The notes beneath the pieces were generated by a model. The model was not told the origin of the DNA. It was given only the letters and a program-made list of their open reading frames with translations, and did no database searches. 64,000 nt of DNA from an uncultured Bacteroidota bacterium (GTDB lineage Bacteria > Bacteroidota > Ignavibacteria > UBA10030 > UBA8401): the NCBI GenBank assembly GCA_963827085.1, contig CAWGZY010000002.1, forward strand, positions 261,889 to 325,888, read 5' to 3'. The translations under genes and the position numbers were made by a program. Shown here one piece after another: positions 1,208-56,358 of this stretch. How positions within the stretch are numbered: position 1 is the stretch's first letter; the number at the start of each line of letters is the position of its first letter.

Positions 1208-1306
1208 GAGACATCTGAAAAATTGCCTCTCGCCAAGCCGCTGGCGAAGCCATCCCCCTCGGGATTTGCGCGAGACGTATTTTTGGAATTATTCAGAAGT
1301 CTCAGA
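1208..1306. repeat. MITE-like intergenic repeat, family 1 (TIR gagacWtctgaaWaat), copy A
   Basis: Left end agagacatctgaaaaat, right end attcagaagtctcaga. Near-identical to the copy at 5075-5170. Confidence 0.7.
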
Positions 1307-1389
1307 TAATGAATAAGGAAGATTTGTTATATTAGAAACGGTTGAAATCCTTAAACGGAGATATATCACACAGCAATGGAACCGATTGA

Positions 1390-2655
1390 ATGGGAAATAC
1401 ATTCTATAATGACTTCGATACGCAGTGTTTGACCAAAAAACGGGCTGCAGACTATCGTTCGCCTTTCGAAATCGATCGCGACCGGATCATTCATACATCT
1501 GCATTCAGAAGATTACAGGCGAAGACCCAGGTTTTTCTTTCGGGGGAATACGACTTCTACAGAACTCGGCTGACTCATTCGCTGGAAGTCGCCCAAATTG
1601 GCCGGTCGATCTGCAAGTTCCTCCAGCACGAAAGCCCCCTGCTTTCGAAAGAATTCACTGTTGACTCGAACCTCGTCGAAGCAATCTGCCTCTCGCACGA
1701 CCTCGGCCATCCTCCGTTCGGGCATTCCGGAGAACGGACGCTTAATGAATTGATGAAACCATACGGCGGCTTCGAGGGGAACGCCCAGACCATGCGCCTG
1801 ATCACGGAGACCATCTATTCTTCCGGCGGAGAACGGCAAGGGATGAATCCAACGCGCGCATTTCTCGACGGCATTTTGAAATACAAGACACCACACGGAG
1901 AATTGGAAAATCCGGAGAACCACTTTATCTACGATGAACAGCGGAGCTATGTGGAATTCGCTTTCGGCGGTGCTTCGCTCCCGAAAGAACTAAGCGCCGG
2001 GAAAAGACTCAATTCGTTCCGCAGCATCGAATGCCAAATCATGGACTGGTCGGATGACGCGGCGTATTCACTCAACGACCTCGCAGACGGCATTCACTCC
2101 GGCATCATCAATAAAGAGAAGATTGAACGATGGGCCGGCGAACAGCCGCTATCCGGCGATGAGAACCGCTCGCTCGAAGATATTCTTGATGCGATGACGG
2201 CGGGACAATTGGAAAAAATCATTGCAGGGAAGATCGGACATTTCATCCAGGCGTGCAGCATCAGCGAATGGAAAAACTTTATGAGCGGGACGACGAATCG
2301 TTATCGTTTTCGATTGGGAATTGATCAATCGATTGAGCGGGAAGCGGAATTGTATAAAAAAATATCCATCGATCTGGTCTTTCATTCGCCCCAACTTCAC
2401 CAGCTTGAGCACAAGGGGGGATATATTCTGAAAAAAATTTTCAACGCTTTCGAAGAAAACTATCTCGGAAAAGAAAATTCAAAAACAAATCTGCTGCCCC
2501 GGGATGCCGAGGAGAGCGTGCGGACCACGGCAAACCCCCGCCAGCGCATGCGGTTGCTGTGCGACCATATTGCCGGCATGACCGACGGCTTTGCCGTCCG
2601 CACCTATAAACGGCTCTTCGATGCTGAGTTCGGCTCGCTGGCAGATCTGATTTGA
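1390..2655 (+). CDS. dgt: dGTP triphosphohydrolase-like HD-domain phosphohydrolase
   Basis: 421 aa with an HD motif (LTHSLEVAQIGR...SHDLGHPPFGHSGE), typical of the dGTPase family. Confidence 0.85.
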   Translation: MGNTFYNDFDTQCLTKKRAADYRSPFEIDRDRIIHTSAFRRLQAKTQVFLSGEYDFYRTRLTHSLEVAQIGRSICKFLQHESPLLSKEFTVDSNLVEAICLSHDLGHPPFGHSGERTLNELMKPYGGFEGNAQTMRLITETIYSSGGERQGMNPTRAFLDGILKYKTPHGELENPENHFIYDEQRSYVEFAFGGASLPKELSAGKRLNSFRSIECQIMDWSDDAAYSLNDLADGIHSGIINKEKIERWAGEQPLSGDENRSLEDILDAMTAGQLEKIIAGKIGHFIQACSISEWKNFMSGTTNRYRFRLGIDQSIEREAELYKKISIDLVFHSPQLHQLEHKGGYILKKIFNAFEENYLGKENSKTNLLPRDAEESVRTTANPRQRMRLLCDHIAGMTDGFAVRTYKRLFDAEFGSLADLI

Positions 2656-2659
2656 TTTT

Positions 2660-2911
2660 TCAATGCGCCGCTTTCAACATCTCCGGCGTAAACTTATTCA
2701 GCTTTACGACCCTCGCTTCTTTCCGGCTCATTGACGGAACAACCATCCTCGCCTGCATCTCGTTCTCCGCTTCGATGATGACGAAACCTGTGTGGTCGCC
2801 GGAGGCGCATCCCCATTCAAAATGTGTCAGGTATCCCGGCGCTTCAACTTGCTTGAGGACATGGGCACAATCATCTTTTGTATGGGGCGATTCTATTAAG
2901 TATCTATCCAT
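2660..2911 (-). CDS. Small conserved hypothetical protein (83 aa from the ATG at 2911, or 105 aa from 2977)
   Basis: ORF with an aagggag RBS 6 nt upstream of the ATG at 2911. No recognisable family. Confidence 0.4.
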   Translation of the reverse strand: MDRYLIESPHTKDDCAHVLKQVEAPGYLTHFEWGCASGDHTGFVIIEAENEMQARMVVPSMSRKEARVVKLNKFTPEMLKAAH

Positions 2912-3003
2912 GCTAACTCCCTTCTTCCTATAGAACCAACTGGCTTCTTTCAACCATTGAAAAAAATTCTCTCTCAAATCCCAAGGGGGATGGCCTCGCC
3001 AGA

Positions 3004-3058
3004 CGCAAAGTCGCTAAGATTTCTTGATGAAATCCATTTTGCGTCTTAGCGACTTTGC
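3004..3058. repeat. Long perfect hairpin (16-bp arms cgcaaagtcgctaaga / tcttagcgactttgcg), family 4. Related to the hairpin at 40320-40399 and to the interior of the element at 56224-56358.
   Basis: Inverted repeat read directly in the sequence. The core gcaaag..cgctaaga is shared with the other copies. Confidence 0.7.
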
Positions 3059-3091
3059 GCAAGGTGTTGAATCCCAGATTTTTCATACGTC

Positions 3092-3700
3092 TTACTTCTT
3101 CGCGTGTTCGGCGTAATCGTAGGGGTAAAAAAGATACAGTGCGTCCGAACTTTCCGGAGACCACTCCGGCACCTTATGTTTCACCGGCTTGATATGGCGA
3201 AGATAAACAACGAGTGCGTGGCGGTCTTCCTCGGTCATGTTGGAAAATCCCGGCCATGGCATGGTCGTCGGCGCGAAAAATCTCCCATCATGCGAAATAC
3301 CGCTGCGCAACACCAGCTTCACCTCGTCATCCGTACGCCGGGCAAGACCTGTTTCGGCGTCAGGAGTCAGATTTCGTGAAAAAGAAGTTCCGGCTTGTTT
3401 AAGTTCAAACTTGGCTCCGCCCGCGAGGAATTCATTCCAGTTCGGCCCCTGGTCTCCCTGCGGCGTGTGGCAATCGCTGCAATCCGAGTATGACATGATA
3501 TATTGTCCCCGCTGGGCAAGAAGTCGTTCAACGGGATCGTCGATTTTCTCCAGCGACGATGCGACCGCTTCTGCGTGAGGGTTGCTAAATGCCTCACGGG
3601 GAAGCAAATCAAAGGGCGGAATAAGATACAGGAACGCAAGAAATCCTATCACTATCAAACATGCCGCTACGATACCGACCCATTTCAATATCTTCTTCAT
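3092..3700 (-). CDS. Membrane-anchored mono-heme c-type cytochrome
   Basis: N-terminal TM helix and a single CxxCH (CSDCH). 4-bp ATGA overlap with the upstream cytochrome gene. Confidence 0.8.
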   Translation of the reverse strand: MKKILKWVGIVAACLIVIGFLAFLYLIPPFDLLPREAFSNPHAEAVASSLEKIDDPVERLLAQRGQYIMSYSDCSDCHTPQGDQGPNWNEFLAGGAKFELKQAGTSFSRNLTPDAETGLARRTDDEVKLVLRSGISHDGRFFAPTTMPWPGFSNMTEEDRHALVVYLRHIKPVKHKVPEWSPESSDALYLFYPYDYAEHAKK

Positions 3701-5049
3701 GGCCGCACCTCCTTTGCTCGGTCAACACGCATCGCAAAATTTTTCTCTGCACCGGAAGAATTCTGTGATACGGGTTTTTGCTGATCATCCGCTTCTTTCA
3801 TGGGATAGACCGGCGTCGGAATCTGTTCTTTCAGGATTAGCATTCTAAATTTACCCCACAAATACGAGAAGATGTTCGGCTTATCAGGATCGGGGATTTT
3901 GTGACTCACGGCAGGAACCGTCCGCAGGTAGGCGACAATGGCGTTTTGATCATCTTCTTTTAATGCAGCAAGCGCCGCCCACGGCATCGGGAAGGGGAGA
4001 AACTTCCTTCCATCGCGCGAGATTCCCTGAGTAAATGCTCTTTTGATTTCCTGATCGGTCCAGTCCCCCAATCCGGTTTCCTTGTCCGAAGTGAGGTTCC
4101 GCGCAACGTACTTTCCGAACGGATAGAGGTCAAACGTCAATCCTCCCGATAACTGCGACCCCTCGACAATATGGAGATCTTCGGTATATCTGGAATGACA
4201 TCCCCCGCATCCGATGGTCCGGACGAGGTATTTTCCCCGCTGGACAGGGTCAGCCTTTGCTTGAGCATCGAGCTTGCTATAAAATTCCTTGACTTCATTT
4301 TCATTCATCTTCCACACGGGTTTGCGTGCGATTGAAACGATGTAGTTTGCAAGGTTCCACATCTCTTTGTCGCTCGCTGTGCCGGCGTACGACGGCATCG
4401 GTGTTCCGTCAATGCCTGTGCTGAACCGCAGATAAATATCTCGCGCGGTCGCCCCTCCGCGGAAGGTCCATGGCTCCGTCAGGTTCACCGCATTGGTTTC
4501 AAAATTCCATTCATCCTGAAAATCTGTTGCCGCCGCGCCCGTTCCGGCGCCGTCGGTTCCATGACAATCAGCGCACTGCAATTTTGCGTAGACTTTTTTC
4601 CCGGCTGCAATGCTTGCGGGCGAATACGGAACTGGAGTTCCTACACGAATGGGACGGGGTTTATCTTTTTGAAAGCGGGGCGAGAATGTCTTCACATAAT
4701 CGACCACTTCTTTTAATGAATCGCCTTTGATGAACGGCGACCAATCCGGCATTGAGGTCCCATGCAAGCCGTTTTTTATCGTTGTTGTCAGGTCTTCATC
4801 CGTCGGAAGGCTTCCGGATTCCGTCGAGCGAAACTTGAACATGCCAGAAGTAAAATTCCGGGGTCGGGGATTGAGCAGCGCCGAAGCGACGCCATCCCCT
4901 TTTCCCGTTGTCCCATGACATTGAACGCAATGCATAGTATAGATGGATTTTCCCACGGCGGACCGGGAAACCGCTTGCGGAAAGGCGGTCGACGCGCTCC
5001 ACATCAATACCGCAAAAACCATACACGTGGTTTTGGAAAACGGTTTCAT
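3697..5049 (-). CDS. Tri-heme c-type cytochrome (three class-I cytochrome c domains)
   Basis: Signal peptide MKPFSKTTCMVFAVLMWSASTAFPQA. Three CxxCH motifs (CVQCH, CADCH, CGGCH), each in a GxxGxG context. Start chosen at the ATG at 5049 rather than 5103. Confidence 0.8.
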   Translation of the reverse strand: MKPFSKTTCMVFAVLMWSASTAFPQAVSRSAVGKSIYTMHCVQCHGTTGKGDGVASALLNPRPRNFTSGMFKFRSTESGSLPTDEDLTTTIKNGLHGTSMPDWSPFIKGDSLKEVVDYVKTFSPRFQKDKPRPIRVGTPVPYSPASIAAGKKVYAKLQCADCHGTDGAGTGAAATDFQDEWNFETNAVNLTEPWTFRGGATARDIYLRFSTGIDGTPMPSYAGTASDKEMWNLANYIVSIARKPVWKMNENEVKEFYSKLDAQAKADPVQRGKYLVRTIGCGGCHSRYTEDLHIVEGSQLSGGLTFDLYPFGKYVARNLTSDKETGLGDWTDQEIKRAFTQGISRDGRKFLPFPMPWAALAALKEDDQNAIVAYLRTVPAVSHKIPDPDKPNIFSYLWGKFRMLILKEQIPTPVYPMKEADDQQKPVSQNSSGAEKNFAMRVDRAKEVRP

Positions 5050-5074
5050 TATTCCTCCGTGAAATGAAAAAATT

Positions 5075-5170
5075 AAGACATCTGAAAAAATCCTGCACGC
5101 CAAGTCGCTGGCGAAGCCATCCCCGGGATTTGCGCGAGACGTACTTTCAGGAACATTCAGAAGTCTCAGA
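5075..5170. repeat. MITE-like repeat family 1, copy B. Directly abuts the family-2 element at 5171-5346, forming a composite.
   Basis: aagacatctgaaaaaatcc ... cattcagaagtctcaga. The interior matches copy A. Confidence 0.7.
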
Positions 5171-5346
5171 TTATTAACTTATGTTACGCAAAAGCTCAAT
5201 GTTATCGCCACGAAGTCACAAAGTCATTAAGAAAAATAACCTTTTTTATTAATGGACTTAACAGAATTGAGCTTTCCCTAAAAAGTTTTTGTGGCTTCGT
5301 GCCATCGTGGCAAAGCTTTTAAACTCTGCGTAACATCAGTTATTAA
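5171..5346. repeat. MITE-like repeat family 2 (TIR ttaacttatgttacgca / tgcgtaacatcagttattaa), copy H1
   Basis: Shares more than 80% of its length with 25961-26176. Internal inverted repeat gccacgaagtcacaaag / ctttgtggcttcgtg. Confidence 0.7.
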
Positions 5347-5352
5347 TTCAAT

Positions 5353-5652
5353 TCATTCAACCACTGTGTAAATTTCGCGCCTGCCTGAATCGACCAACGG
5401 CGTAAACTTAGCATGATACCACTCGCCGAACTCTTTCATTCCAAGCTCGCTCTTCAACGACTGCTCAAAGGCTGTCAGATTTTCGAACGTATTCTCCAGG
5501 ATGAATATGTAGAACGGACCGGTGCAATCAGTGAGAACACGGCTTTCCGGAAGATTGTATTTCTTGCGAAGCGCTGCGAATTCTTTCCACGCAGCCTTCG
5601 CTTCTTTGGCTTTTCCAAATTTCAATTGAAATACCTCGCGGACGACTATCAT
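5353..5652 (-). CDS. Small alpha+beta protein, NIPSNAP/Dabb-like (99 aa)
   Basis: MIVVREVFQLKFGKAKEAKAAWKEF... RBS aaggag 6 nt upstream of the ATG at 5652. Confidence 0.45.
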   Translation of the reverse strand: MIVVREVFQLKFGKAKEAKAAWKEFAALRKKYNLPESRVLTDCTGPFYIFILENTFENLTAFEQSLKSELGMKEFGEWYHAKFTPLVDSGRREIYTVVE

Positions 5653-5910
5653 AGAAATCTCCTTTTGTTTGTTTAATTGGAATAAAAAGCACGAGAGCAT
5701 TGTTGCTGAAAAAAAACAGCAATACCTTGTGCTTAATGAATTTCGCGTTGGAAGTGATTTATACTAGCACGACCGGCTTACGATATGAATTCAAGCCCTA
5801 CATGCATTGAATCTCCCCGGTCTTTTGCCTACATTTGTGCGGTAATGTATGTTTTCGTAAAGATTAAGTCAAGAATAATTTCTTGCCACCCCCTTGAATT
5901 TCGACAATCC

Positions 5911-7578
5911 ATGACAATGCAGCCGCTCGTAGATTTTTTTGCAGAAAACCAGCTTCTTCTTTTCTTTACCGTCATCGGGCTCGGCTACCTTGCCGGCCAG
6001 ATCAAAGTGTTCGGGTTCAGCCTTGGCGTCTCGGCTGTGCTCTTTGTCGGGATAGCGTTCGGCGCGCTTGATAAAAGGCTCAGTCTCCCCGAATACATCT
6101 ACATCATCGGGCTTGTTCTTTTCGTGTATGCCGTCGGGCTGCAATCGGGTCCGAGCTTCTTTGCTTCATTCCAGAAACGCGGATTGCACACAAACGGACT
6201 CGCTGCACTTCTGCTCATCGCCGGAGCGTTGATGACGGTTGTCATTTGGAAAGTTCTTGGCATCTCTCCGTCGAGTGCGGCCGGACTTTTTTGCGGCGCG
6301 TTGACGAGCACTCCGGCACTCGCCGCAACTGTTGAGACTGCAAAATCTCTTTCTATAAACCTTCCGCGCGATGTTGCCGACCTCAACGCCAATAGTCCGG
6401 TAGTAACATACGGCCTTGCGTATCCGTTCGGCGTGCTTGGAGTCCTCTTATGGTCCTTTGTTTTCATAAAGATTTTTAAAATAGACTTTGCAAAGGAAGA
6501 AGCAACGCGCATGAGGGAATCCGGTTCGGACATCATCGTCAGCCGGACGTTTCATATAACGAATCCTGCAATCAATGGAAAAAGCGCCGAGGAATCCCTA
6601 CAGCTTCTCGGCCAACCGGCATTCACACTCAGCCGGATCAAAAAGGGAGCGAGCATCGAAATCGTCAGACCGGACACGATACTCTCCACGGGCGATCGGA
6701 TAGTAGCGGTTGGAACGCAGGATGCACTTGAGCGGGCACGAATATTGTTCGGCGAAGAGGCGGCGGATCATCTCCCTCTCGACAACACCGGAATCGATTT
6801 TCGGCGCATCTTCGTTTCCAACACATCTGTTGTCGGCAAACGTATTCACGAGCTTAATCTAGAAAAAGAATTCGGTGCCACAATCACCCGCTTGCGCCGC
6901 GGCGATGTCGATTTTGTTCCATCGCCGGATACCATTCTTGAAATGGGGGACAGAATCCGCGTTGTCACTCGTCTCGAAAATCTGGACCGCATCACAAAAT
7001 ATTTCGGCGACTCGATGAAAGCGATCTCCGAAACGGATTTTCTTTCCATTTCGTTCGGCATCGTACTGGGAGTGATGGTTGGCATGATCCCTCTTCCGCT
7101 TCCGCACGGAATGGTGTTTAAACTCGGATTTGCCGGCGGACCGCTCGTCGTTGCCCTCATCCTCGGCCGGCTCGAACGCACCGGGCCTATCCTCTGGGCG
7201 CTTCCATTCAACGCAAATCTTGTACTGAGGCAAACAGGGCTTGTCTTTTTCCTCGCGGGAATCGGTACAAAAGCCGGTTTCGGCTTTGGGACAATATTTC
7301 AATCGGGAGGATGGGAATTGATCGCGGCGGGTGCGCTCATAACCACATGCGTTGTCGTGTTAACAATACTTGTCTCCTATAAATACCTGAAGCTACCGAT
7401 GTCCGCAGTCGTAGGAATCGTGGCCGGCATGTCTACACAATCGGCTTGCCTTGCCTATGCGAACCAACAGACGCAAAACGAACAGCCGAACATCTGGTAC
7501 GCCACCGTATATCCGGCCTCGATGATCGCTAAAATCATCCTTGCACAAATCATCGTTTCTGTGCTGTGGATGCTATAA
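5911..7578 (+). CDS. YidE/YbjL-family (AspT-like) transporter with two TrkA-C (RCK_C) domains
   Basis: Duplicated transmembrane halves flank two cytoplasmic RCK_C-like segments (SRIKKGASIEIVRPDT..., TRLRRGDVDFVPSPDT...). Start taken at the ATG at 5911 (MTMQPLVDFF). Confidence 0.75.
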   Translation: MTMQPLVDFFAENQLLLFFTVIGLGYLAGQIKVFGFSLGVSAVLFVGIAFGALDKRLSLPEYIYIIGLVLFVYAVGLQSGPSFFASFQKRGLHTNGLAALLLIAGALMTVVIWKVLGISPSSAAGLFCGALTSTPALAATVETAKSLSINLPRDVADLNANSPVVTYGLAYPFGVLGVLLWSFVFIKIFKIDFAKEEATRMRESGSDIIVSRTFHITNPAINGKSAEESLQLLGQPAFTLSRIKKGASIEIVRPDTILSTGDRIVAVGTQDALERARILFGEEAADHLPLDNTGIDFRRIFVSNTSVVGKRIHELNLEKEFGATITRLRRGDVDFVPSPDTILEMGDRIRVVTRLENLDRITKYFGDSMKAISETDFLSISFGIVLGVMVGMIPLPLPHGMVFKLGFAGGPLVVALILGRLERTGPILWALPFNANLVLRQTGLVFFLAGIGTKAGFGFGTIFQSGGWELIAAGALITTCVVVLTILVSYKYLKLPMSAVVGIVAGMSTQSACLAYANQQTQNEQPNIWYATVYPASMIAKIILAQIIVSVLWML

Positions 7579-7614
7579 GCAGATGTCGGACATCTGTTGA
7601 AATTGCGAGCATGT

Positions 7615-7927
7615 GACCTTCATCTCGTTCCCAATCTCTGATTGGGAACGGAGTAAAGCTGAAGCTCCGCTTCACGGGTGGGTCGAAGGGACATCATTGG
7701 CTGCAACATTCGTTCCCAAACGGAGTTTGGGAACGAGATAAACTAGATAAAATCTGCATTTTAATTATATACCGAACATGAATTTTTATCATAACTTTCC
7801 GTTGACTTTCATCTCGTTCCCAATCTCTGATTGGGAACGGAGTATGGCAGAAGCTCGGCTTCACAAATGGAACGAAGGGACGACATTGGCGGCACAATTC
7901 GTTCCCAAACGGAGTTTGGGAACGAGA
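7615..7927. repeat. Tandem pair of a ~125-bp structured repeat (family 3): copy 1 at 7615-7738 and copy 2 at 7805-7927. Each is flanked by ~31-bp inverted ends that are themselves hairpins (gttcccaat ctctg attgggaac, and gttcccaaa cggag tttgggaac).
   Basis: Copies are ~88% identical. Each is preceded by a tgacYttcatctcg motif. A family-1 TIR fragment (ggacatctgttgaaattgc) sits at 7589-7608. Confidence 0.7.
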
Positions 7928-8058
7928 CAATAACAGCCGATCCGTAGCAGCGGGAGAGTTTAGGAACCAGATAAAAACAAGATAAAAGCGGCCGGGCTCA
8001 CCCAAATTGCGGCATACACTACTCACTTTTCGCTTCAAATCTTTCTCGCAACTTTCCG

Positions 8059-8087
8059 TTGACTTTTTTCCATTTTTTTGCTATAAT
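8059..8087 (+). promoter_or_regulatory. Sigma70-type promoter for rplU-rpmA: TTGACT, 17-bp spacer, TATAAT
   Basis: ttgact (8059-8064), spacer tttttccatttttttgc, tataat (8082-8087), about 45 nt upstream of the rplU start. Confidence 0.55.
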
Positions 8088-8133
8088 AGTAGTCCAATTT
8101 GAAAGACCATTATTTTGAGGAAGGATGTATCCG

Positions 8134-8781: not shown

Positions 8782-9879
<1,098 letters not shown>

Positions 9880-15557: not shown

Positions 15558-15566
15558 TTAAAAATT

Positions 15567-15700
15567 GAGACTTCTGAAAAATGCTGGAGTAATGTCATTC
15601 TGAGGAGCACAGCGACTTCCGAAGGAATGCCTTCGGCATTCTCCCGCCGCTTTTCGGCGTGATCAGAATGACATTCCATTACCAATTATTCAGAAGTTTC
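15567..15700. repeat. MITE-like repeat family 1, copy C, with a large internal hairpin (gtaatgtcattctga ... tcagaatgacattcc)
   Basis: Left end gagacttctgaaaaatg, right end attattcagaagtttc. Confidence 0.65.
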
Positions 15701-15749
15701 AAATTAAGAGTTAGGAATTTACAATAGACTTTCACTGATCTCGGTAAAT

Positions 15750-17702: not shown

Positions 17703-18952
17703 TACGCTTTCTCCGCAGCGCGAATTCTCTTTTCGATCGACGGGTGGCTGTAAAAAAGAAATTCTACCACCGGATGGGGGGCCGTATCGGCAAGGTTCAT
17801 GTCGGCCAGTTTCCTCATCGTTGACATGAACGCCGGGGCATTTCCCGTTCTCTCAAGCGCATAACGGTCGGCTTCGAACTCATATTTCCTCGACAAAACA
17901 TTCGACAAGGGCGACGTCAACAGCGAATAGACTCCAAGCCAGAGAGCCAACAGCGGCAGTGCCGCAAGCTGATCGACAGAAGAGAAACCAAACCATCCGA
18001 GCGAGAAAAAATAAAGTTTCGAAGTAATAAAAAGCCCGGCATAGATGCTCAGCGTCCCCACCAGGATGTTTTTCCAAATGTGCCCGTGGACGTAATGGCC
18101 GAGCTCATGCGCAAAAACAGTTTCGACCTCGTCATCCGAAAAGTGCTGCATCAGCGTATCGCCTAAAATGATCCTCTTCGATTTTCCGATGCCCGTAAAT
18201 CCTGCATTCGCTTTCTTCGTTGTCTTGCTAAGGTTGAAGGTGAATATTCCCGTTACGTTCATGCGGGTGTTCTTGCACAGGGAGAGAATTCGTTCTTTCA
18301 GAGCGTCGTTCTCCAGAGGAGTGAATTTGTAGAAGAGCGGCATGATGAACACCGGAGCAATCTTAGAAAGAAGCATCGACACAACAAACATCGCCGTCGC
18401 GACCGGCAGCCACCATAATGCCTGGTACGTTCTCAAGAAAAAATAAAACAGAAGCACCAACGGCACCGCGATAGGAATGCTGACGAGAAATGCTTTGACC
18501 TGTTCCCACAGCCATTGAAAGAAACTCTGGTTCGACAAATTATACCGATGTTCGAGAACGAAGCCAGAGTAAAAACTCAGCGGGAAAGAAATGACGCCGC
18601 TCAGCACGCCGAGCAACGCTCCAAAAAGAAGCAGGGCAACATACGGCGACTGGGTGTATAAATGGACAAAATTCTCCATGCGGAGAGAAAAGCCTGTCAT
18701 GACAATAGCCAATGTAACAATAAACGAAAACGTTGTCCCGATAAGAGACAACGTCAGCTTGATGCGGCTATATTTTTTTGCTTGAGATGATGGTGCCGGC
18801 GTGTTTGTGGGGTCTGCTTCAACGGCACGAAAGATTTTCATGGACGAAACAACGCGAGGGTTGGTCTTCTGTGGTTTTTCAATAATACAAAAAGTGGAGA
18901 AGAAAAACAAGGAGAAGATTGAGGGGGACGTGAAACATGTTTCACGGAACAC
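17702..18952 (-). CDS. M48-family (Ste24/HtpX-like) zinc metalloprotease, polytopic membrane protein
   Basis: HELGHYVHGH zinc motif and multiple TM helices. Stop overlaps the plsC start (TAATG). The start may instead be the internal Met of MKIFRAVEAD. Confidence 0.75.
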   Translation of the reverse strand: MFRETCFTSPSIFSLFFFSTFCIIEKPQKTNPRVVSSMKIFRAVEADPTNTPAPSSQAKKYSRIKLTLSLIGTTFSFIVTLAIVMTGFSLRMENFVHLYTQSPYVALLLFGALLGVLSGVISFPLSFYSGFVLEHRYNLSNQSFFQWLWEQVKAFLVSIPIAVPLVLLFYFFLRTYQALWWLPVATAMFVVSMLLSKIAPVFIMPLFYKFTPLENDALKERILSLCKNTRMNVTGIFTFNLSKTTKKANAGFTGIGKSKRIILGDTLMQHFSDDEVETVFAHELGHYVHGHIWKNILVGTLSIYAGLFITSKLYFFSLGWFGFSSVDQLAALPLLALWLGVYSLLTSPLSNVLSRKYEFEADRYALERTGNAPAFMSTMRKLADMNLADTAPHPVVEFLFYSHPSIEKRIRAAEKA

Positions 18953-25960: not shown

Positions 25961-26176
25961 CTTAACTTATGTTACGCAAAAGCCCAATGTTATCGCCACG
26001 AAGTCACAAAGTTACTAAGAAAAACAACCTTTTTTATTAATGCACTTAACAGAATTACGATTTCCTTAAAAGTCTTTGAACTTGGTGCCTTCTGCCAGCG
26101 GCATCTCCCAACGGGATCGCTTCGCGAACGTTGGGAGTGGCAAAGCTTTTAAACTCTGGCAACATCAGTGATTAAA
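25961..26176. repeat. MITE-like repeat family 2, copy H2
   Basis: ttaacttatgttacgcaaaag ... ggcaaagcttttaaactctggcaacatcagtgattaaa. The interior carries a tctcccaacgggatcgcttcgcgaacgttgggag hairpin that is shared with 58385-58565. Confidence 0.7.
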
Positions 26177-30341: not shown

Positions 30342-31366
30342 GTGATTACAGCTTTGCTCGAACATAATGTCCTCCCCGATTGGCTGATCCGGATCGGTAT
30401 TCGGAGGCTGCTGCATCGGCGGCTAAAGGAAGAGGCCAAAGCCGACTGCGAACTGCAGCAACAGCACTTCATGAATCTCGTCGAGGAATTGAGAAAGAGT
30501 CCGATCGCGATCCACACTGACGATGCGAACGAACAGCATTATGAGCTTCCCACAGAATTTTTCAAACTCATCCTCGGGAAGCACATGAAGTACAGTTCGG
30601 GGTACTGGAACGACGGCGTTAACAATTTGGACCGATCAGAAGCTGACATGCTTGCGCTCACCTGCCAACGAGCGCAGATCACCGACGGGATGAGCATTCT
30701 TGAATTAGGGTGCGGATGGGGATCCTTGTCGTTGTTTATGGCGGAGCAATTTCCAAAGGCGCATATTACGGCCGTCTCAAACTCGCGCACGCAGAAATCT
30801 TTTATCGACGGCGAATCTGCCCGGCGCGGCCTGAAGAACGTCGCTGTTATCACTGCGGACATCAACAACTTCCAACCGATGAACAATTCGACCGGGTCAT
30901 ATCGGTGGAAATGTTCGAGCACATGAGAAATTATGAAAGGTTGATGGCAAAGGTGGCCGGATTCTTACATCCCGCGGGGAAACTCTTCGTCCACATTTTC
31001 ACTCATAAAGATTTTGCCTATACATTTGAGGTCAGGGATAACTCCGACTGGATGTCACAATATTTCTTCACCGGCGGAATCATGCCCAGTGATCATTTGC
31101 TCCTCTATTTCTCGAAAAACCTGGCGGTCGAAGAACATTGGAGAGTCTCGGGCATCCACTACCACAAAACGAGTGAAGCCTGGCTTGCCAACATGGATGC
31201 CCACAAAGAAAAGATCTTCCCGATTCTTGCTCAAACCTATGGCAACGGCCAGGCTACAAAATGGTGGGTATCCTGGAGAGTATTTTTTATGTCATGTGCT
31301 GAATTGTGGGGTTTCAACGGCGGCGAAGAATGGTTTGTGAGTCACTACTTTTTCACGAAAAGGTAA
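30342..31366 (+). CDS. Cyclopropane-fatty-acyl-phospholipid-synthase-like SAM methyltransferase, interrupted by a 1-nt frameshift near 30896
   Basis: Frame 1 (30342-30926) reads ...LELGCGWGSLSLFMAEQFPKAHITAV...ITADINNFQP. Frame 2 continues DEQFDRVISVEMFEHM...GFLHPAGKLFVH, which is the canonical CMAS motif. GTG start with a gagga RBS. Confidence 0.75.
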
Positions 31367-31371
31367 CCTGC

Positions 31372-32681
31372 ATGAGTAAGAAACATTCAGCGAGGACAAG
31401 CATCGGAATTGTCGGCACCGGCATCGCGGGGATGGGTTGCGCATACTTTTTGCATACGACCCACGACATCACAATCTACGAGCAAAATAATTACATCGGG
31501 GGGCACACAAATACGGTGACGGTGGACGAGGACGGCACGGAGATACCTATCGATACCGGCTTCATGGTCTACAATGAGGTTACCTATCCGAACCTTGTAA
31601 GACTGTTTCATGAGTTGAATGTTGAAACAAAGAACACTTCCATGTCGTTCAGCGTTCAGCATCTGCCATCGGGTCTTGAGTATTCCGGATCAAGTCTGAA
31701 CCATTTATTCGCGCAACGCAAGAATATCCTCAGTCCGCGTTTTATCCGGATGATATGGCAGATCAACCGTTTCAATAACGAGTGTCCTGAAGTTCTGGCA
31801 GATAAGAAATTCGCATCCTATACACTGAAGAGTATGTGCGGGAACGAAGATTCGGCGACGATGTTTTGAAAAAATACCTTGTACCCATGAGCTCTGCGGT
31901 CTGGTCAACACCTCCGGACCAGATGCTCCGGTTTCCGGCTGTCACGCTCGTGCGGTTCTTTAAGAATCACGGGTTTCTTGGCCTGGACACGCAACACCAA
32001 TGGCGCACCGTTGTTAACGGCACAAGAAGTTACCGGGATAAGCTCATCGCTCCGTTTGCAAAAAGAATCCTTACCGGCAACCCGGTCGTGAATGTCATGC
32101 GCAAGAAAAGGAAGGTCGAACTGCGGCTCAAAGATGGCGGGAGAGCGCTGCACGATCGCGTAATCCTTGCTTGCCATGCGGACGAGGCTCTGAACATGCT
32201 GGACAAGCCCACGACGCTCGAAAAGCGATTGCTCGGAGAATTCAAATACCAGCACAACAGGGCCACACTTCACACTGATGCGAGTCTTATGCCGAAGACA
32301 AAGCTCGCGTGGTCATCATGGAATTACCGCCTCGACACCAATGCCGACGGAACCTCAAAATCTTCCACGATCTACTACATGAACAGTCTTCAGAACGTGT
32401 CGAAAAAGAGGGATTATTTTATTTCCATCGATGATCCCGGGACTGTTAATCCCGGTTCGATATTAAAAGAAATTGATTACACGCATCCGGTCTTTTCCCT
32501 GGGAGCGATCACGGCGCAGAGAGAGCTGTCCCTTATCAATAAGGAAGGTCCGTTATATTTCTGCGGCAGTTATTTCAAATATGGGTTTCATGAAGATGCG
32601 TTCACTTCAGCCCTCGAACTTTGCAGGTCATTGATGGACGTGCCGATTTGGCCACCCCGGGAGGAGTTGCGTCAGCCATGA
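31372..32681 (+). CDS. NAD/FAD-binding amine-oxidase-like oxidoreductase (fatty-acid desaturase-like, UfaD-type), interrupted by a 1-nt frameshift near 31840
   Basis: IGIVGTGIAGMGCAYFL (dinucleotide-binding fold) ...; second frame ERRFGDDVLKKYLVPMSSAVWSTP... One G is missing in cggg(g)aacg. ATGA overlap with the next gene. Confidence 0.75.
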
Positions 32682-40399: not shown

Positions 40400-40445
40400 G
40401 TGAATTAGTAATAGGAAAACACAATATTTGTTTTGAGAAACAGCA

Positions 40446-40841
40446 TTAGTATCTGATTTCGTTCAATTCTCTTTGCGAGACTTTTCTTAAAAATTCAACC
40501 AGCTCGTTGTCTCCTATTATTTTCCCATCGTACATTCTCTTTCCATCTTCCAATAACGCTTTAATTTGAAAATTCAAATTTGATCTCTCCCTAAATTTAT
40601 ATATTGAGTTTATTACCGTAAGAACCATTGAAAGAAGCGAAGACCATATAATCAATGAGTCAAACGTATTTTGAATGTCAAGAGCGTAGTGTTGTTTGAG
40701 GAGCAACATAGATGGTATCGCCAGAACTATCATGATGCTAATAGCTCCGCACCAATTCCCGACTAGTCTGTTCATTGTGCCCCGTTTGTGTTGAAAATCT
40801 ATTTTTCTTAATAAGTCTTCATACGTTGGATTAATTTCCAT
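40446..40841 (-). CDS. Hypothetical membrane protein
   Basis: 131-aa ORF with two TM helices and low GC. Confidence 0.4.
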   Translation of the reverse strand: MEINPTYEDLLRKIDFQHKRGTMNRLVGNWCGAISIMIVLAIPSMLLLKQHYALDIQNTFDSLIIWSSLLSMVLTVINSIYKFRERSNLNFQIKALLEDGKRMYDGKIIGDNELVEFLRKVSQRELNEIRY

Positions 40842-49352: not shown

Positions 49353-49355
49353 ACC

Positions 49356-51056: not shown

Positions 51057-51177
51057 TGTATCTGAGGCGTGGAATTCGCCGAAAGCCCGCCGACTCCCCC
51101 CCTTCCGCGGCACAGGAAGTTTTTCTTCAAGTCGGCTTAGACGCGATCTCAAATGCAGCATGACAATATTCATTGTC

Positions 51178-51237
51178 AGAGGCATCTGAAAAATCATCTC
51201 TCGCCAAGCCGCACTTTTGGGATTATCCTGAAGTCTC
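51178..51237. repeat. Degenerate short copy of MITE family 1
   Basis: agaggcatctgaaaaatcatctctcgccaagccgc ... cctgaagtctctg. Confidence 0.5.
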
Positions 51238-51335
51238 TGTTAAGATTTCTCCTTGTCCGTTTTTGCATCCTCAATAAGAAAAGGTTCCATTATTGAGGAT
51301 TCTCGCTTCGTACATTAATCGCCTAATGTGCATTT

Positions 51336-54300
51336 ATGGATGACACAAGACCACAATCGCACCGTCAGTATTTACCATTGTGGAATTTCTGGCTTGCAGC
51401 GGCAGTCTGGACAGCCCTCATCGGTTTCTCCTTTGTGTACAATGTACATTCGACACGCTCCATGATGTCGCAAATGGCTCTCTTCGAAGCACGCAGGATT
51501 TTTGAGAGAAACATCGCAAGCAGTCATTGGGAGGCTGGTTCGCTCGGCCTTCAGCTCAACTTCGGATCGAACGCACTCACGCAAGGCCGCATCACGAGTT
51601 TAAAACTCGTCGACGAGAAAAACGCCCCCGATGTCTGGGAACGCACTTCCGTCGAGCGGCTTTCGCACGGAGAAGTTGAAATAGCCGATGTCATGACGGT
51701 CGATGGGTTTCCGTATCTTCGCGTGATGAAACCGCTCGTCGTTACCAGGCGCTGCCTGGATTGCCACTCGGCGCAAGGCTACTCCGAGGGAGAAATAAGG
51801 GGCGGGATAAGCGTTGCCGTACCGCTCAAATCTTCGCAGGAAATCGAAGCAAGAGATCAGAAGGCTTCCCTTCTGTGGCATTTCATTATCTATCTTGTCG
51901 GGCTCGGCGGAATCATAGGGGGAACGATAAGCGTTCAGAAGAAAAGGCGGGCTCACGAATTTGCCCGTGAGGCTCAAGTCTCCGCAGAAAGGAAGCTGGC
52001 ATCTCAGGAGCAATATCTTAAAGCGATCGTTCAGGGCTCGCCGATTGCTGTGGTCGTTTTGGATTTACATCAGATCATCGAGTCATGCAACGAAGCATTC
52101 GAGAACATTTTCGGATACTCCATAACGGAAGCGGTCGGCAAGAACCTGGATGATTTGATCGTTCCGGCTGACCGCAGAACTGAAGCGGAACAATTGACGC
52201 GATCGTCCAACAGCGACGGAAGGGTTCACAAGGAATTGACGTGCCGCCGGAAGGACGGATCACTTGTCGCTGTCAAGGTTTTCGCCAAGTCGATTTCCAT
52301 TAATGGACTCGAAGTGGGAGTCGTAGCGCAGTACGTCGATATCAGCGAGCAGAAGCAATCTAAGGAGAACCTGCAGAGAGAGAGAACGCTCCTTCGGACA
52401 CTCATCGACAACCTGCCAGACGCAATCTACGCCAAAGACACTTCCTGCCGTAAGACCATTGCCAATCCTGCAGACGTGCATAATATGGGGTTGCAGTCAG
52501 AAGCTGACGTCTTAGGCAAAGACGACTTTGACCTTTTCCCAAAAGATGTCGCGGAGGGATTCTTTGCTGACGACCAATCGGTTATTCAAACCGGCATACC
52601 CGTGCTCAATAGAGAAGAATATTTCATTGACGCAGAAGGCCGAAAGCGCTGGCTGGAAACTTCTAAACTTCCTTTGAAGGATGAGCGGGACAAAATTATT
52701 GGCATCATCGGCATCGGTCGCGAAATTACGAAAAGAAAAAATGCCGAAGAAGCACTCAAGCATGAAAAAAGTGTTATGGAAGCCCTGATGGACAACGTCC
52801 CGGACAGCATCTACTTTAAAGACCGCCAATGCCGGCTGACGAAAATCAGCCGAAAGATGTTGAATGATTTGAAAATGAATGATATGAGCCAGGTCATCGG
52901 AAAAACGGACGTGGATTTGTTCGGCGAGGAATTTGGCCGGAAAACACTGGAGAACGACGAGCGCCTGATGGCAATAGGTAAACCAATCGTGGGGTTAACC
53001 GAGAGCAGGAAGTTGGAGGACGGGAGTTTCTATTGGACGTCAACCACGAAGGTACCGCTTCGGGACAACAGCGGCCAAATCGTCGGGCTGGTCGGCATCA
53101 CACGCGAAATCAATGAGTTCATGAAGGCGCAGGAGGAGCGCGAACGTGAACGTAACCTCCTCCGCACGCTTATTGATAACATACCTGACTACATCTATGT
53201 GAAAGACCGGGACGGCCGTTTTATTGTATCCAATACAGCCGTCGTGCATCAAATGGGGCTTGCTTCCGAGAACGAGCTTTTAGGAAAAACTGATTTCGAC
53301 TTTTTCCCCCACGATCTGGCTGCAAAATACTACGCAGAAGAACAAGCGATTATCCAGGCTGATAAGGGAATCTACAATCATGAAGGTCCCTCCGTCGATG
53401 CCAGCAAAGAAGAGAAAGATCGATGGGTTACGACGAACAAAGTCATTCTTCGGGATGGTCAAGGCAGCATCACCGGGTTCGTCGGTATCGGCCGCGACAT
53501 CACTGAGCGAAAACGGGCGGAAGAACAAATTCGTTCCCAATTATCGATTATCGAGGAACAGAATCTCGCGCTCACAACTGCAAATGAGAAAGCACTGGAA
53601 GCCACTAAAGCAAAAAGTGCATTTCTCGCCAGCATGTCGCATGAGCTGCGAACTCCTCTGAATGCCATCATCGGCTACAGCGAAATGCTGGACGAAGAAA
53701 TGGGCGACAATGGCGACGACCGGTATCGCGCAGATGTTGAGAAGGTACGTTCGGCCGGCAAACATCTTTTAGGATTGATCAACGATATTCTCGATCTCTC
53801 GAAGATCGAATCCGGCAAGATGGAGTTGTATCTCGAAGAGTTCGACCTGAAAAACGTGATCGGGGAAGTGGCTTCGATGGTTCAGCCCCTGATCGCTCAG
53901 AATGAGAATACTTTTGTGTTGACGGGGAACGAGGAGTCTCGGCTTGTGCGGCTCGATCTCACGAAGGTCCGACAGATCCTCTTTAATCTTATCAGTAATG
54001 CGTCGAAGTTTACGCAGAATGGCACCGTGTCGCTCGAGGTCGCTTCCGTTCCCGGCGACGCCGCTCCACGGCCGGCAATTCGCTTCAGGGTTTCCGATAC
54101 CGGAATAGGAATTACGAAAGAACAAGAAGAACGGCTTTTTAAAGAGTTTGCTCAAGCGGACGGCTCCACGACTCGCAGGTACGGCGGCACCGGCCTTGGC
54201 CTTGCGATCTCGAAACGATTTTGTGAAATGATGGGAGGTTCGATAGGCATAGAAAGTTCCTCAAGTAAAGGAACTACATTTGTCGCTACTTTACCGCAGC

Positions 54301-55118
54301 GAATTGAGGAACCCCACGAAGGGACGATCCCTATAACAGTACCGTCGATTATCGCAGACAGAGTCTTCCCGAAAAAATCGTGTATCCTTATTATCGATGA
54401 CGATCCCGGTGTGCTGGATTTGTTGACCCGTTATCTTACGAAAGAGGGCTATCTCACTGTAGCCGTCTCGAGCGGCGACGAAGGCCTGCAGCGCGCAAGA
54501 GAAATCATACCTCTCGCAATTATTCTCGATGTTGTGATGCCGTCAAAAGATGGGTGGGCTGTCTTGCAGGAAATAAAGAGCGATCCGGCCTTGGAAGACG
54601 TCCCCGTCGTCATGCATACGATGGTGGACGACAAGAATTTCGGGCTTGCGGTCGGGGCTTCGGAATACCTGACCAAGCCGGTCGATAAAGAAAAGATCCT
54701 GCACGTCATCCAACGGCTCACACCCAAGGTCAAACGCAGCTACGTCCTTGTTGTCGATGACGATTCGGACGCTCGCACTACCATCTGCCGTCCAATCGAG
54801 AAAGCAGGGTGGGAAGTGCGGACTGCCGACAACGGAAAATCAGCCATCGCAATTCTCGAGAAAGAAATCCCCGGCATCATCTTCCTGGATCTCATGATGC
54901 CCGTCATGGATGGATTTGAGTTTCTTGCCATTCTCCAAAACAAAAAAGAGTGGACTCAAATTCCCGTGGTCATCGTCACATCGAAGGACCTCACGATCGA
55001 CGAACGTCAACGATTGAATCGATCCGTCATGAACGTCATCCAGAAGGGGGACCTGACGCCGGACAAACTCCTCAAACAGTTGACGATGCTTGTTCCCCGC
55101 ATGTCGCAGAAACCATAA
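51336..55118 (+). CDS. Hybrid sensor histidine kinase: DUF3365-type heme-c sensor domain (CLDCH), TM, about five PAS/PAC domains, HisKA, HATPase_c, two REC domains
   Basis: RRCLDCHSAQGY (CxxCH). H-box SHELRTPLNAIIGY. G-boxes DTGIGI and GGTGLGL. Receiver Asp contexts IIDDDPG and VVDDDSD. Confidence 0.9.
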   Translation: MDDTRPQSHRQYLPLWNFWLAAAVWTALIGFSFVYNVHSTRSMMSQMALFEARRIFERNIASSHWEAGSLGLQLNFGSNALTQGRITSLKLVDEKNAPDVWERTSVERLSHGEVEIADVMTVDGFPYLRVMKPLVVTRRCLDCHSAQGYSEGEIRGGISVAVPLKSSQEIEARDQKASLLWHFIIYLVGLGGIIGGTISVQKKRRAHEFAREAQVSAERKLASQEQYLKAIVQGSPIAVVVLDLHQIIESCNEAFENIFGYSITEAVGKNLDDLIVPADRRTEAEQLTRSSNSDGRVHKELTCRRKDGSLVAVKVFAKSISINGLEVGVVAQYVDISEQKQSKENLQRERTLLRTLIDNLPDAIYAKDTSCRKTIANPADVHNMGLQSEADVLGKDDFDLFPKDVAEGFFADDQSVIQTGIPVLNREEYFIDAEGRKRWLETSKLPLKDERDKIIGIIGIGREITKRKNAEEALKHEKSVMEALMDNVPDSIYFKDRQCRLTKISRKMLNDLKMNDMSQVIGKTDVDLFGEEFGRKTLENDERLMAIGKPIVGLTESRKLEDGSFYWTSTTKVPLRDNSGQIVGLVGITREINEFMKAQEERERERNLLRTLIDNIPDYIYVKDRDGRFIVSNTAVVHQMGLASENELLGKTDFDFFPHDLAAKYYAEEQAIIQADKGIYNHEGPSVDASKEEKDRWVTTNKVILRDGQGSITGFVGIGRDITERKRAEEQIRSQLSIIEEQNLALTTANEKALEATKAKSAFLASMSHELRTPLNAIIGYSEMLDEEMGDNGDDRYRADVEKVRSAGKHLLGLINDILDLSKIESGKMELYLEEFDLKNVIGEVASMVQPLIAQNENTFVLTGNEESRLVRLDLTKVRQILFNLISNASKFTQNGTVSLEVASVPGDAAPRPAIRFRVSDTGIGITKEQEERLFKEFAQADGSTTRRYGGTGLGLAISKRFCEMMGGSIGIESSSSKGTTFVATLPQRIEEPHEGTIPITVPSIIADRVFPKKSCILIIDDDPGVLDLLTRYLTKEGYLTVAVSSGDEGLQRAREIIPLAIILDVVMPSKDGWAVLQEIKSDPALEDVPVVMHTMVDDKNFGLAVGASEYLTKPVDKEKILHVIQRLTPKVKRSYVLVVDDDSDARTTICRPIEKAGWEVRTADNGKSAIAILEKEIPGIIFLDLMMPVMDGFEFLAILQNKKEWTQIPVVIVTSKDLTIDERQRLNRSVMNVIQKGDLTPDKLLKQLTMLVPRMSQKP

Positions 55119-55137
55119 CATTGAGAATCGGCAGCCA

Positions 55138-55506
55138 ATGGCCCAAATACTTCTCGTCGAAGACAATGATGCAAACCGTGAAATGCTCTCCCGCCGCCTC
55201 AAAAGACGCGGGTTTACAATCATCGAGGCCGTGGATGGCCAGCGTGCAATCGAGACTGCACAATCTGCAAGACCTGACCTCATCCTCATGGACATGAGTC
55301 TCCCCGTGATTGACGGATGGGAAGCGACAAAGCGGATCAAGGGAGATCCGGAGCTCAAGCACATACCCATTGTCGGATTGACGGCGCACGCTATGGTTGG
55401 AGATCGTGAAATGGCATTACAGGCTGGATGTGACGAGTATGCAACGAAACCGGTGGACTTTGAACGGTTGGTAGAGACGATCAATCGGCTTCTTGCAAAT
55501 CCCTAA
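55138..55506 (+). CDS. Single-domain response regulator (CheY-like)
   Basis: MAQILLVEDNDANREML...LILMDMSLPVIDGWE...KPVD. Confidence 0.85.
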   Translation: MAQILLVEDNDANREMLSRRLKRRGFTIIEAVDGQRAIETAQSARPDLILMDMSLPVIDGWEATKRIKGDPELKHIPIVGLTAHAMVGDREMALQAGCDEYATKPVDFERLVETINRLLANP

Positions 55507-55569
55507 CGGCACTATGAGTTGTCGACCGGATTCCTTACCGTAAACTCCAACCCTTTTCCTTTCTTAGCC

Positions 55570-56022
55570 TCACCGAAGCACCACGCCCGATTCCCCGGAT
55601 GTTGCGAGAACTGCGCCCGTATTCGAACCTTTGACTCTAATCCCCGAATGTCCCGCAGCTTGAACATTCGCATAATACGAATCCAACAGAAGAGCGACAG
55701 CTTTCTTGTCATCTTCGCTGTAACTGTTCCATCGCTCTTCGTTAAATACGCATGTCGATGACGGTGTATGGTACTCGATCACGAATCCTACTTGGATCCA
55801 GCTTTCAACGATGTGGCGCCTCACTTCCGGATCGTTGGTATAGATATCGTCGGCGTTCCGGCTTCCAAGATAACCTTTGATCACGAAAACGGCGCCACCA
55901 AGGACAAACAACAAGAGAACAAATACGATTTTTCTGTTCTTCCGATTGCGCTTCAAAATAAGTTCGGAGTTGGCCTTCATACCCTCCGTAAACATCTTTT
56001 CTTCATCTTCTGCAAATCCCAT
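55570..56022 (-). CDS. Hypothetical membrane-anchored protein
   Basis: 150-aa ORF with one TM helix (IVFVLLLFVLGGAVFVI). Confidence 0.4.
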   Translation of the reverse strand: MGFAEDEEKMFTEGMKANSELILKRNRKNRKIVFVLLLFVLGGAVFVIKGYLGSRNADDIYTNDPEVRRHIVESWIQVGFVIEYHTPSSTCVFNEERWNSYSEDDKKAVALLLDSYYANVQAAGHSGIRVKGSNTGAVLATSGESGVVLR

Positions 56023-56074
56023 GAGAGCATCTCCTTTTTAGGGTGCAACAGAAACTATTCCGTTGAATGGTCGA

Positions 56075-56220
56075 CTGATGTTACGCAAAAATCCTTTTTG
56101 ACACACCCCCAACCCCTCTCTCTTTCGCCGCACGCTCACACACAGAGGGGAGCGGCGGGGTGTGTCCTTTGTTTAGTGGAGCACTTCCTTCATAAATTTT
56201 TCAGAATGCGTAACATCAAT
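56075..56220. repeat. MITE family 2, copy H4, in inverted orientation. Abuts the family-1 element at 56224-56358, giving a composite that mirrors 5075-5346.
   Basis: ctgatgttacgcaaaaatcc ... cagaatgcgtaacatcaat. Confidence 0.65.
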
Positions 56221-56223
56221 AAT

Positions 56224-56358
56224 TAGAGACTTCTGAATAATTCCAAAAGTCTGCTCACGCAAAGGTATAGCTTCGCCAGACGCAAAGTCGCAAAATGATT
56301 TAAAAATAGGCTCCTTGCGCCTTGGCGGCTTGGCGCGAGACGATTTTTCAGATGTCTC
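56224..56358. repeat. MITE family 1, copy E, in inverted orientation. Its interior contains the family-4 motif cgccagacgcaaagtcgc.
   Basis: agagacttctgaataattcc ... atttttcagatgtctc. Confidence 0.7.

Follow-up and report, generated by a model that had tools for sequence, protein, structure and literature searches.

MITEs (miniature inverted-repeat transposable elements) of prokaryotes are recognised as elements of less than 500 bp without coding capacity, bounded by terminal inverted repeats (TIRs) of approximately 4-30 bp and by flanking direct repeats, with multiple dispersed copies, insertion into AT-rich intergenic DNA, evidence of mobility and a related autonomous insertion sequence (IS) (PMC10969869). 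In type I MITEs the similarity to an IS is full, while in type II MITEs conservation is confined to the TIRs, so that only the ends resemble an IS (PMC10969869). No MITEs from the Ignavibacteria are among those listed in that review (PMC10969869), and our literature search returned no paper pairing Ignavibacteria with MITEs; the terminus strings matched human primers only. Here, we analyzed a 64-kb stretch of contig CAWGZY010000002.1 from an uncultured member of the Ignavibacteria (hereafter, the window), which contains six copies of a short repeat with conserved inverted ends. These copies very probably represent a DNA transposon that is non-autonomous, namely, a MITE family of type II that occurs across the Ignavibacteria and is apparently undescribed so far. 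The structural features of the prokaryotic MITE listed in PMC10969869, from length and lack of coding capacity to TIRs, direct repeats and dispersed copies in AT-rich intergenic DNA, are all present in this family.

The end sequence GAGACWTCTGAAWAAT was searched across the window with up to three mismatches allowed, using 100 dinucleotide shuffles as the control. We found 12 matches, compared with 2.8 ± 1.8 in the shuffles, none of which (0/100) reached 12. Five convergent pairs, made up of ten of these matches, delimit copies 1 to 5 (Table 1), and this paired-end pattern had no match in the shuffled window. Profile hidden Markov models (HMMs) trained on the copies of other genomes recovered exactly six copies in the window and nothing else, namely, these five and a sixth, degraded one. 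The first-pass annotation of the window had reported the same five copies, with imperfect TIRs of approximately 16 bp; its coordinates were right to within 1-3 nt, its termini do align once mismatches are counted, and both interior strings that it quoted are present in the sequence. An additional TIR fragment, which it had placed at positions 7589-7608 (+), was rejected as a family member since its similarity is at chance level. This fragment matches 10 of the 16 consensus positions and has neither a partner end nor a duplication, chance alone would produce the 8-mer that it shares with the family ends approximately twice in the window, and in a relative (L127; other loci are cited in the same form) the orthologous spacer holds merely diverged sequence.

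The copies in the window are singly dispersed, 2-35 kb apart and in both orientations, among housekeeping genes. Their density is six per 64 kb, approximately one per 11 kb, from which hundreds of copies genome-wide in this lineage, as first proposed, is a plausible extrapolation. All copies are intergenic, with the exception of two bases of copy 6, but the initial description of their sites as lying between convergent or divergent genes holds for copy 1 only, which is located between divergent genes; copies 2, 3, 4, 5 and 6 are located between co-directional genes. The outermost two bases of copy 6 and one flanking T form the stop codon (3092-3094) of a 202-aa cytochrome c gene, which is TAA in the window and TGA in OY970334.1 (L125 19970-19972). 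Since the end of copy 6 supplies bases of this stop codon, its insertion defined the present 3′ end of the gene.

Based on a scan of one genome per species with the paired-end pattern, we identified at least 113 further loci in approximately 55 assemblies, which contain 107 elements (among the matches listed). Nearly all of these loci are of the Ignavibacteria type, and approximately 10 are chance single-end matches in unrelated phyla. The remaining loci come from assemblies labelled Ignavibacteria, Ignavibacteriales, Bacteroidota, 'Chlorobiaceae' or 'Calditrichia', although the taxon labels of metagenome-assembled genomes (MAGs) are unreliable. One cultured isolate is among the matches listed, Stygiobacter electus (Ignavibacteria, Melioribacteraceae). 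A metagenome scan with the left end of subfamily (b), described below, added 28 loci. The seven matches obtained from viral contigs with the paired-end pattern were discarded, all of them lying by chance within one conserved phage gene.

The ends of the elements are 16-bp inverted repeats of consensus sequence 5′-GAGAC(A/T)TCTGAA(A/T)AAT-3′. Among the matches listed, they are conserved in the 107 elements over only 16-18 bp, approximately, in genome loci chosen with a pattern that forced the ends to match. Conservation is confined to these ends, and the interiors belong to types that are unrelated to each other and mostly form hairpins, with one type dominating in each genome. Type (a), the majority type, which includes copy 3, is a double or long hairpin, GTCAYYC...GRRTGAC; type (b), or subfamily (b), has the interior CTCGCCAAGCCGC...GCGYGAG and includes the other five copies in the window; types (c) and (d) are rarer. 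Subfamily (b) is modular and ranges from 51 to 141 nt. Its full form of 141 nt carries two modules, the palindromic P and the 22-nt Q, and its partial forms carry P only (111-119 nt), Q only (93-96 nt, as in copies 1 and 2) or neither (51-59 nt, as in copy 4 and a comparable 51-nt form at L094 3657-3707). The 51-59-nt copies, which retain little beyond the two ends, are still flanked by duplications.

Element lengths are 51-149 nt, mostly 111, 119, 129 or 138 nt, excepting nested composites of 252 nt (L132), 348 nt (L149), 720 nt (L098) and 1,450 nt (L137); in L132 and L149, type (a) hairpins are nested within subfamily (b) copies. The longest ATG-initiated open reading frame (ORF) has 37 codons, with a median of 16, and the GC content is 40% in the elements, 31% in their flanks and 49% in the window. 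The 22-nt module, TGGCGAAGCCATCCC(N3)GGGA, is optional in subfamily (b) and occurs in at least three different positions and in both orientations. In L124, a precise insertion of this module without duplication frameshifts an ORF6N gene; the same gene is intact in L126 (6152-6772).

The elements are flanked by target-site duplications of sharply 5 bp. The 5-nt sequences on the two sides of each of the five paired-end copies in the window are identical at 23 of 25 positions in total, with a signal at k = 5 only. In other genomes, 54 of 105 scorable elements have perfect 5-bp duplications, and the positional identity of the flanks is 78% at k = 5, compared with 34-44% at k = 3, 4 and 6-8 (both among the matches listed). 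Perfect duplications were also found in 15 of the 21 complete subfamily (b) copies from metagenomes, several of these loci being one site sampled in different metagenomes. The target reconstructed from the flanks is a symmetric, AT-rich palindrome of 17 bp, 5′-AwTwAT-N5-ATwAwT-3′, centred on the duplication. Its information peaks at positions -6 (A, 83-84%), -4 (T, 73-74%), +3 (T, 74-75%), +8 (A, 70%) and +10 (T, 77-79%) and levels off beyond -7 and +11. The same consensus results from 70 targets that are unrelated to each other. We considered and rejected the idea that it is an artefact of insertion into the ends of other repeats, since only 3 of 73 targets adjoin another repeat family and the consensus persists without them.

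Comparison with close relatives shows both occupied and empty sites. L091, a MAG approximately 90% identical to the window and syntenic with positions 1-5670, lacks copy 1 at the orthologous site. At the site of copy 2, it carries, in reverse orientation, a 111-nt copy whose AAAAT duplication is perfect, and the corresponding spacer is empty, with a length of approximately 30 nt, in L125 (OY970334.1), L126 and L127, three relatives found via CTP synthase homologs of 92-97% identity. The kdsB-pyrG spacer, 220 nt long with copy 3 in the window, has a length of 91 nt in L127 and of 61 nt in L126, both without an element; in OY970334.1 it is 186 nt long and holds an independent subfamily (b) copy at a different position. 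Over the same 22-kb syntenic segment, the window has three copies, OY970334.1 two, and L126 and L127 none. L157 is 99.5% identical to the window up to position 56076 and then lacks a 287-nt block (56077-56363) that comprises another small repeat and copy 5. As judged from these alignments, copies 1, 2, 3 and 5 are absent from the orthologous sites of close relatives, which is evidence of mobility. The remnant of copy 6, in contrast, is common to the window, L091 and L125, so it is an old insertion. The MITE interpretation advanced in the first-pass annotation is supported by the large number of further copies, their aligned termini, the 5-bp duplications, the unoccupied orthologous sites and the lack of any ORF longer than 37 codons.

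Table 1. Location of the repeat copies and of other features in the window and in related loci; positions are those of the window unless a locus is named.
Feature	Location	Strand	Description	Flanking duplication	Context
Copy 1	1208..1303	+	Subfamily (b), 96 nt; module Q without module P; left end GAGACATCTGAAAAAT, right end ATTATTCAGAAGTCTC; HMM E = 7e-21	AGATA at 1203-1207 and 1304-1308	Between divergent ammonium transporter (-) and HD hydrolase (+) genes
Copy 6	2977..3093	-	Subfamily (b), degraded; left end AAGACGTATGAAAAAT at 3093-3078, modules P and Q recognisable, right end lost; HMM match at 2977-3092 with E = 4e-8		
Copy 2	5075..5167	+	Subfamily (b), 93 nt; Q only; ends AAGACATCTGAAAAAA and GAACATTCAGAAGTCTC	AAATT/AGATT, 4/5 match	At an unrelated small repeat (its AT-rich end), upstream of a 450-aa cytochrome c gene
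Copy 3	15567..15700	.	Type (a), 134 nt; interior a long GTCATTCTGA...TCAGAATGAC hairpin; E = 2e-12 with the type (a) profile	AAATT at 15562-15566 and 15701-15705	kdsB-pyrG spacer, both genes (-)
Copy 4	51179..51237	+	Subfamily (b), 59-nt internal-deletion form without P and Q	TGTCA/TGTTA, 4/5 match	Between type II/IV secretion ATPase (+) and PAS histidine kinase (+) genes
Copy 5	56226..56358	-	Subfamily (b), 133 nt, near full length (P and degraded Q); HMM E = 6e-34	AATTA at 56221-56225 and 56359-56363	End of an unrelated small repeat (56077-56225), between DUF2279 gene (-) and 150-aa gene (-)
22-nt module	1242-1264; 5109-5128; 3001-2980 (-); L124 4215-4236; also L130, L131, L098				
Second small repeat family	5174-5346; 8828-8936; 25962-26071; 56077-56225		Ends TTAATAACTGATGTTACGCA / TGCGTAACATMAGTTAWTAA		
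Palindromic repeat cluster	7614-7930		GTTCCCAATCTCTGATTGGGAAC-type repeats		Downstream of transporter gene
45-nt repeat	26100-26144; 58500-58544		Two copies, containing CGCGAAGCGATCCCGTTGGGAG		
Cyclopropane-fatty-acid-synthase-like fragment	30342-30926				Lipid-modification gene cluster
Amine oxidase	31306-32681		Split into two overlapping ORFs		Same lipid-modification cluster
Inverted repeats	40416-40448; 58340-58372; 58542-58573		TAGTGCTGTTTCTCAAAAA..., matching the ends of the IS630-type element		
IS630-type element	L125 16516-17649		DDE_3 and HTH ORFs		Replaces Asp-Al_Ex transporter gene in OY970334.1
IS110-family element	L137 483-1932 (metagenome contig Ga0182022_1286470)		Pfam Transposase_20, apparently frameshifted	CT core	Nested in a subfamily (b) copy
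720-bp end pair	L098 2974-3693 (OY970334.1)		Weak ends		Around a GIY-YIG gene
Strain-specific insertion	L124 3875-5314		1.44 kb, AT-rich; junction ATGAG/TTGAG		Broken ORF6N gene; compared with window ~18919-18923
Different island	L124 14828 onwards (window 28471)		Starts with a large serine recombinase		After tRNA-Glu

In the mechanism that we propose, the 16-bp inverted end pair would be the only inherited and recognised part of the element, and a transposase supplied in trans would most likely bind both ends. The fixed stagger and the palindromic target suggest a dimeric transposase of the DDE type, acting as a symmetric dimer. Insertion would take place at a 5-bp staggered cut in the centre of the AT-rich palindromic target, and repair of the stagger would produce the 5-bp duplication. 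Such a target would favour insertion into AT-rich spacers and at the AT-rich ends of other repeats, and the copies would thus stay intergenic. The interior is dispensable, and it is rebuilt in each lineage from cassettes that form hairpins, through internal deletion and through the nesting of other small repeats. Elements of this kind may still be moving at present.

Several observations weigh against this interpretation. A search for relaxed end pairs (at least 12/16 matches) located 400-5000 bp apart revealed no transposase gene enclosed by family ends in approximately 1.2 Mb, a sample too small to exclude a low-copy IS; approximately one partner copy would be expected in it if the genome had about three copies. 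The terminal sequence was not matched to a known IS family by the methods used. Since the genome loci were chosen with a pattern that required matching ends, the conservation seen at end positions 2-15 is circular in part. Regarding the empty sites, that of copy 1 in L091 is not perfectly clean, its AT-rich spacer having diverged with a 12-nt indel, and the comparison of copy 5 with L157 falls at a recombination boundary, beyond which identity drops from 99.5% to 92%.

The loci contain no transposase-like ORF in multiple copies, and the gene annotation of the window includes no transposase or integrase gene. Several candidate partners were rejected. The pair in L113 belongs to an ordinary copy of 130 nt with three mismatches in its right end, the end pair in L061 encloses a response regulator, and the 720-bp pair in L098 consists of weak ends around a GIY-YIG gene. 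The 1,450-bp unit in L137 is an ordinary copy with an outer AAGTT duplication and a nested IS110-family element, a family end at a contig edge belongs to another ordinary copy, and the strain-specific insertion in L124 is without family ends. The IS630-type element of L125 was rejected as a source because its ends, TA/CTAGTGCTGTTTC..., are unrelated to GAGAC....

Some of these candidates have features of their own. Several hairpin modules of the GTCATCCTGAG type flank the small GIY-YIG nuclease gene of L098 (92 aa, Pfam E = 6e-15), which is the only such gene in the sequence examined. At the IS110 junction in L137, GCGT-CT/.../CT-TTGCGCGAG, the CT core is duplicated, and a related junction is present in L147; a conserved MITE interior, that of subfamily (b), seems to be a target of a site-specific IS110-type element. 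A third MITE family, derived from IS630, probably originated from the IS630-type element of L125, and the inverted repeats listed in Table 1 would belong to it. The strain represented by L124 is 99.95-100% identical to the window.

It is conceivable, although unlikely, that the copies are fossils, in which case the IS that spread the family would have been lost, nothing would move, and the relatives would differ by old insertions, deletions and recombination. The absence of a partner element from the 1.2 Mb is consistent with this idea, as are the degraded state of copy 6 in the three genomes that have it in common, the recombination boundary at the copy 5 difference, and the imperfect state of approximately half of the duplications (among the matches listed). 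Nevertheless, the other half of these duplications are still perfect, and several sites are different in relatives whose CTP synthases are 96-97% identical, including one 200-nt spacer with two independent insertions of different subfamilies. Additionally, the ends are conserved over many genera and the interiors are not, which suggests continued selection by an enzyme.

We consider it rather improbable that the family is a 'chassis' element instead of a set of IS deletion derivatives, that is, that its 16-bp ends are maintained across the class by a transposase not itself carried between such ends, and its interiors are repeatedly rebuilt from independently moving micro-modules. The enzyme would then be single-copy or domesticated, or would come from an undescribed IS family. 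The micro-modules would be the hairpin cassettes and the 22-nt unit, which inserts precisely and without duplication, even into a coding gene.

A very improbable explanation is that the elements are structured RNA genes or signals, such as a small RNA, a terminator or an mRNA stabiliser, with the ends as a selected terminal stem. Folding agrees with this explanation in part, since four of the five whole copies in the window fold at z = -3.3 to -6.4 (copy 3, z = -6.3) and, with the 16-nt ends removed, the interiors of the family are structured, with a median z of -3.7 and z < -2 in 83 of 109 interiors compared with 3 of 97 control segments. In the window, the same removal leaves z = -3.9 in copy 3, -1.9 in copy 5, -0.6 in copy 1 and +0.2 in copy 2, and copy 4 has almost no interior left for folding. 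The claim that the interiors form different long hairpins is thus correct for copy 3, borderline for copy 5 and incorrect for copies 1, 2 and 4, the first two of these being without significantly structured interiors. An RNA gene, however, does not explain the 5-bp duplications and the palindromic target. The copies have no Rfam match at the gathering score, nor at E <= 1, matches to promoter and terminator consensus sequences are at shuffle level, which gives no support to the promoter, terminator or small-RNA roles initially suggested, and the orientation of the elements relative to neighbouring genes is inconsistent, with one site occupied both ways.

The changes observed in the ends also argue against a selected stem. 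Subfamily (b) has A at left-end positions 6 and 13, where the right end has T in both cases, so that the two ends are non-complementary at both positions. The test for compensation was restricted to positions 1 and 16, as the scan pattern forced one end to be exact elsewhere, and the changes at these two positions are 27 one-sided, 6 matching and 5 different. Because these non-pairing positions are kept and the changes are mostly one-sided, the ends are, on the aligned copies, not maintained as a base-paired stem. A host-level RNA role on top of transposition could nonetheless exist.

REP/REPIN palindromes lack a target duplication and are associated with a RAYT (HUH) gene, and integron attC sites form same-orientation arrays split by cassette ORFs, beside an integrase gene. 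That the present elements are REP/REPIN-like palindromes moved by a single-copy RAYT enzyme, or attC-like sites, is hardly credible: the conserved inverted ends around a variable, hairpin-forming centre of 60-140 nt, the tiny GCGAAGC hairpin modules and the precise, duplication-free insertion of one 22-nt module are reminiscent of them, but the elements have variable 5-bp duplications, which to our knowledge neither REP/REPIN nor attC insertions create, the copies are dispersed in both orientations without cassette arrays, no integrase gene is found in the window, and no integrase or RAYT gene is found among the Pfam-annotated neighbours of the copies.

Other repeats and gene remnants were observed in the window (Table 1). 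Copies 2 and 5 adjoin the AT-rich ends of two repeats of the second small family. The cluster of palindromic repeats downstream of the transporter gene contains the only sub-threshold Rfam matches of the region, to plant microRNA hairpin models, which are not meaningful. The 45-nt repeat shares its architecture with the 22-nt module, namely, a mini-hairpin with GCGAAGC and, after it, an ATCCC/GGGAG stem. From position 56364 onwards, the window is approximately 92% identical to L157 (16720 onwards), with gene content differing further on, and this boundary coincides with a repeat cluster. In the lipid-modification cluster, the cyclopropane-fatty-acid-synthase-like fragment and the split amine oxidase may be frameshifts or pseudogenes.

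For the Ignavibacteria, which are little studied and mostly uncultured, this family provides a defined and easily recognised mobile element, with known ends, duplication length and target motif. Its recognition should help genome annotation, as such repeats break assemblies and spawn spurious small ORFs, and the copies can serve as strain-distinguishing markers and as a starting point for identifying the transposase responsible. With its well-defined palindromic target and its conservation restricted to the ends, the family is a clean case for how a transposase sustains a non-autonomous family across long evolutionary distances. As a bacterial mobile element it is of an ordinary kind, and it leaves the knowledge of how MITEs work unchanged. 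The class-wide ends with cassette-like interiors and the 17-bp palindromic target are worth following up, although they would not surprise a specialist, as are the lack of a partner so far and the precise insertion of the 22-nt module into a coding gene.

Among the known small elements, those derived from Tn3 resemble the family in their target. Tn3-family transposons generate a 5-bp duplication, prefer AT-rich targets and have ends of approximately 38 bp that start with GGGG. The Tn3-derived MITEs (TIMEs) share the 5-bp duplication and the AT-rich target preference with our family; nevertheless, this assignment was rejected, since the ends described here are conserved over approximately 16-18 bp and start with GAGAC. 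MITEs derived from IS630/Tc1-mariner elements have a TA duplication, and this origin was also rejected because the duplication is here 5 bp long and variable and the IS630-type ends of L125 are unrelated. The Correia elements of Neisseria, with a TA duplication and TIRs of approximately 26 bp, and the ERIC elements of enterobacteria are likewise intergenic palindromic elements of approximately 100-150 nt with TIRs, tens to hundreds of copies and indel variants, but they have no sequence similarity to the Ignavibacteria family. We know of no 5-bp duplication combined with a 17-bp palindromic target in either of them.

Correia and ERIC are both named in PMC10969869. The same review (PMC10969869, section 3.3) describes BOX, RUP and SPRITE of Streptococcus pneumoniae, small repeats that insert into one another. 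In a similar way, copies 2 and 5 are located where copies of a different small repeat end, and hairpin modules and an IS110-type element are nested in copies of our family, although the organisms and the repeat families differ. Compared with the type II MITEs Chunjie of Geobacter uraniireducens and QMITE1/2 of Coxiella, the Ignavibacteria family has a different end sequence, spans many genera of a class and not one species, has interiors that are discrete, unrelated cassettes and not a decay gradient from one parent, and its parent IS was not found. Nevertheless, it shares with these type II MITEs the length of less than 500 bp, the short TIRs, the direct repeats in younger copies, the AT-rich intergenic targets, the stable predicted stem-loops, the size-variable or truncated copies and the presence of many copies per genome (PMC10969869).

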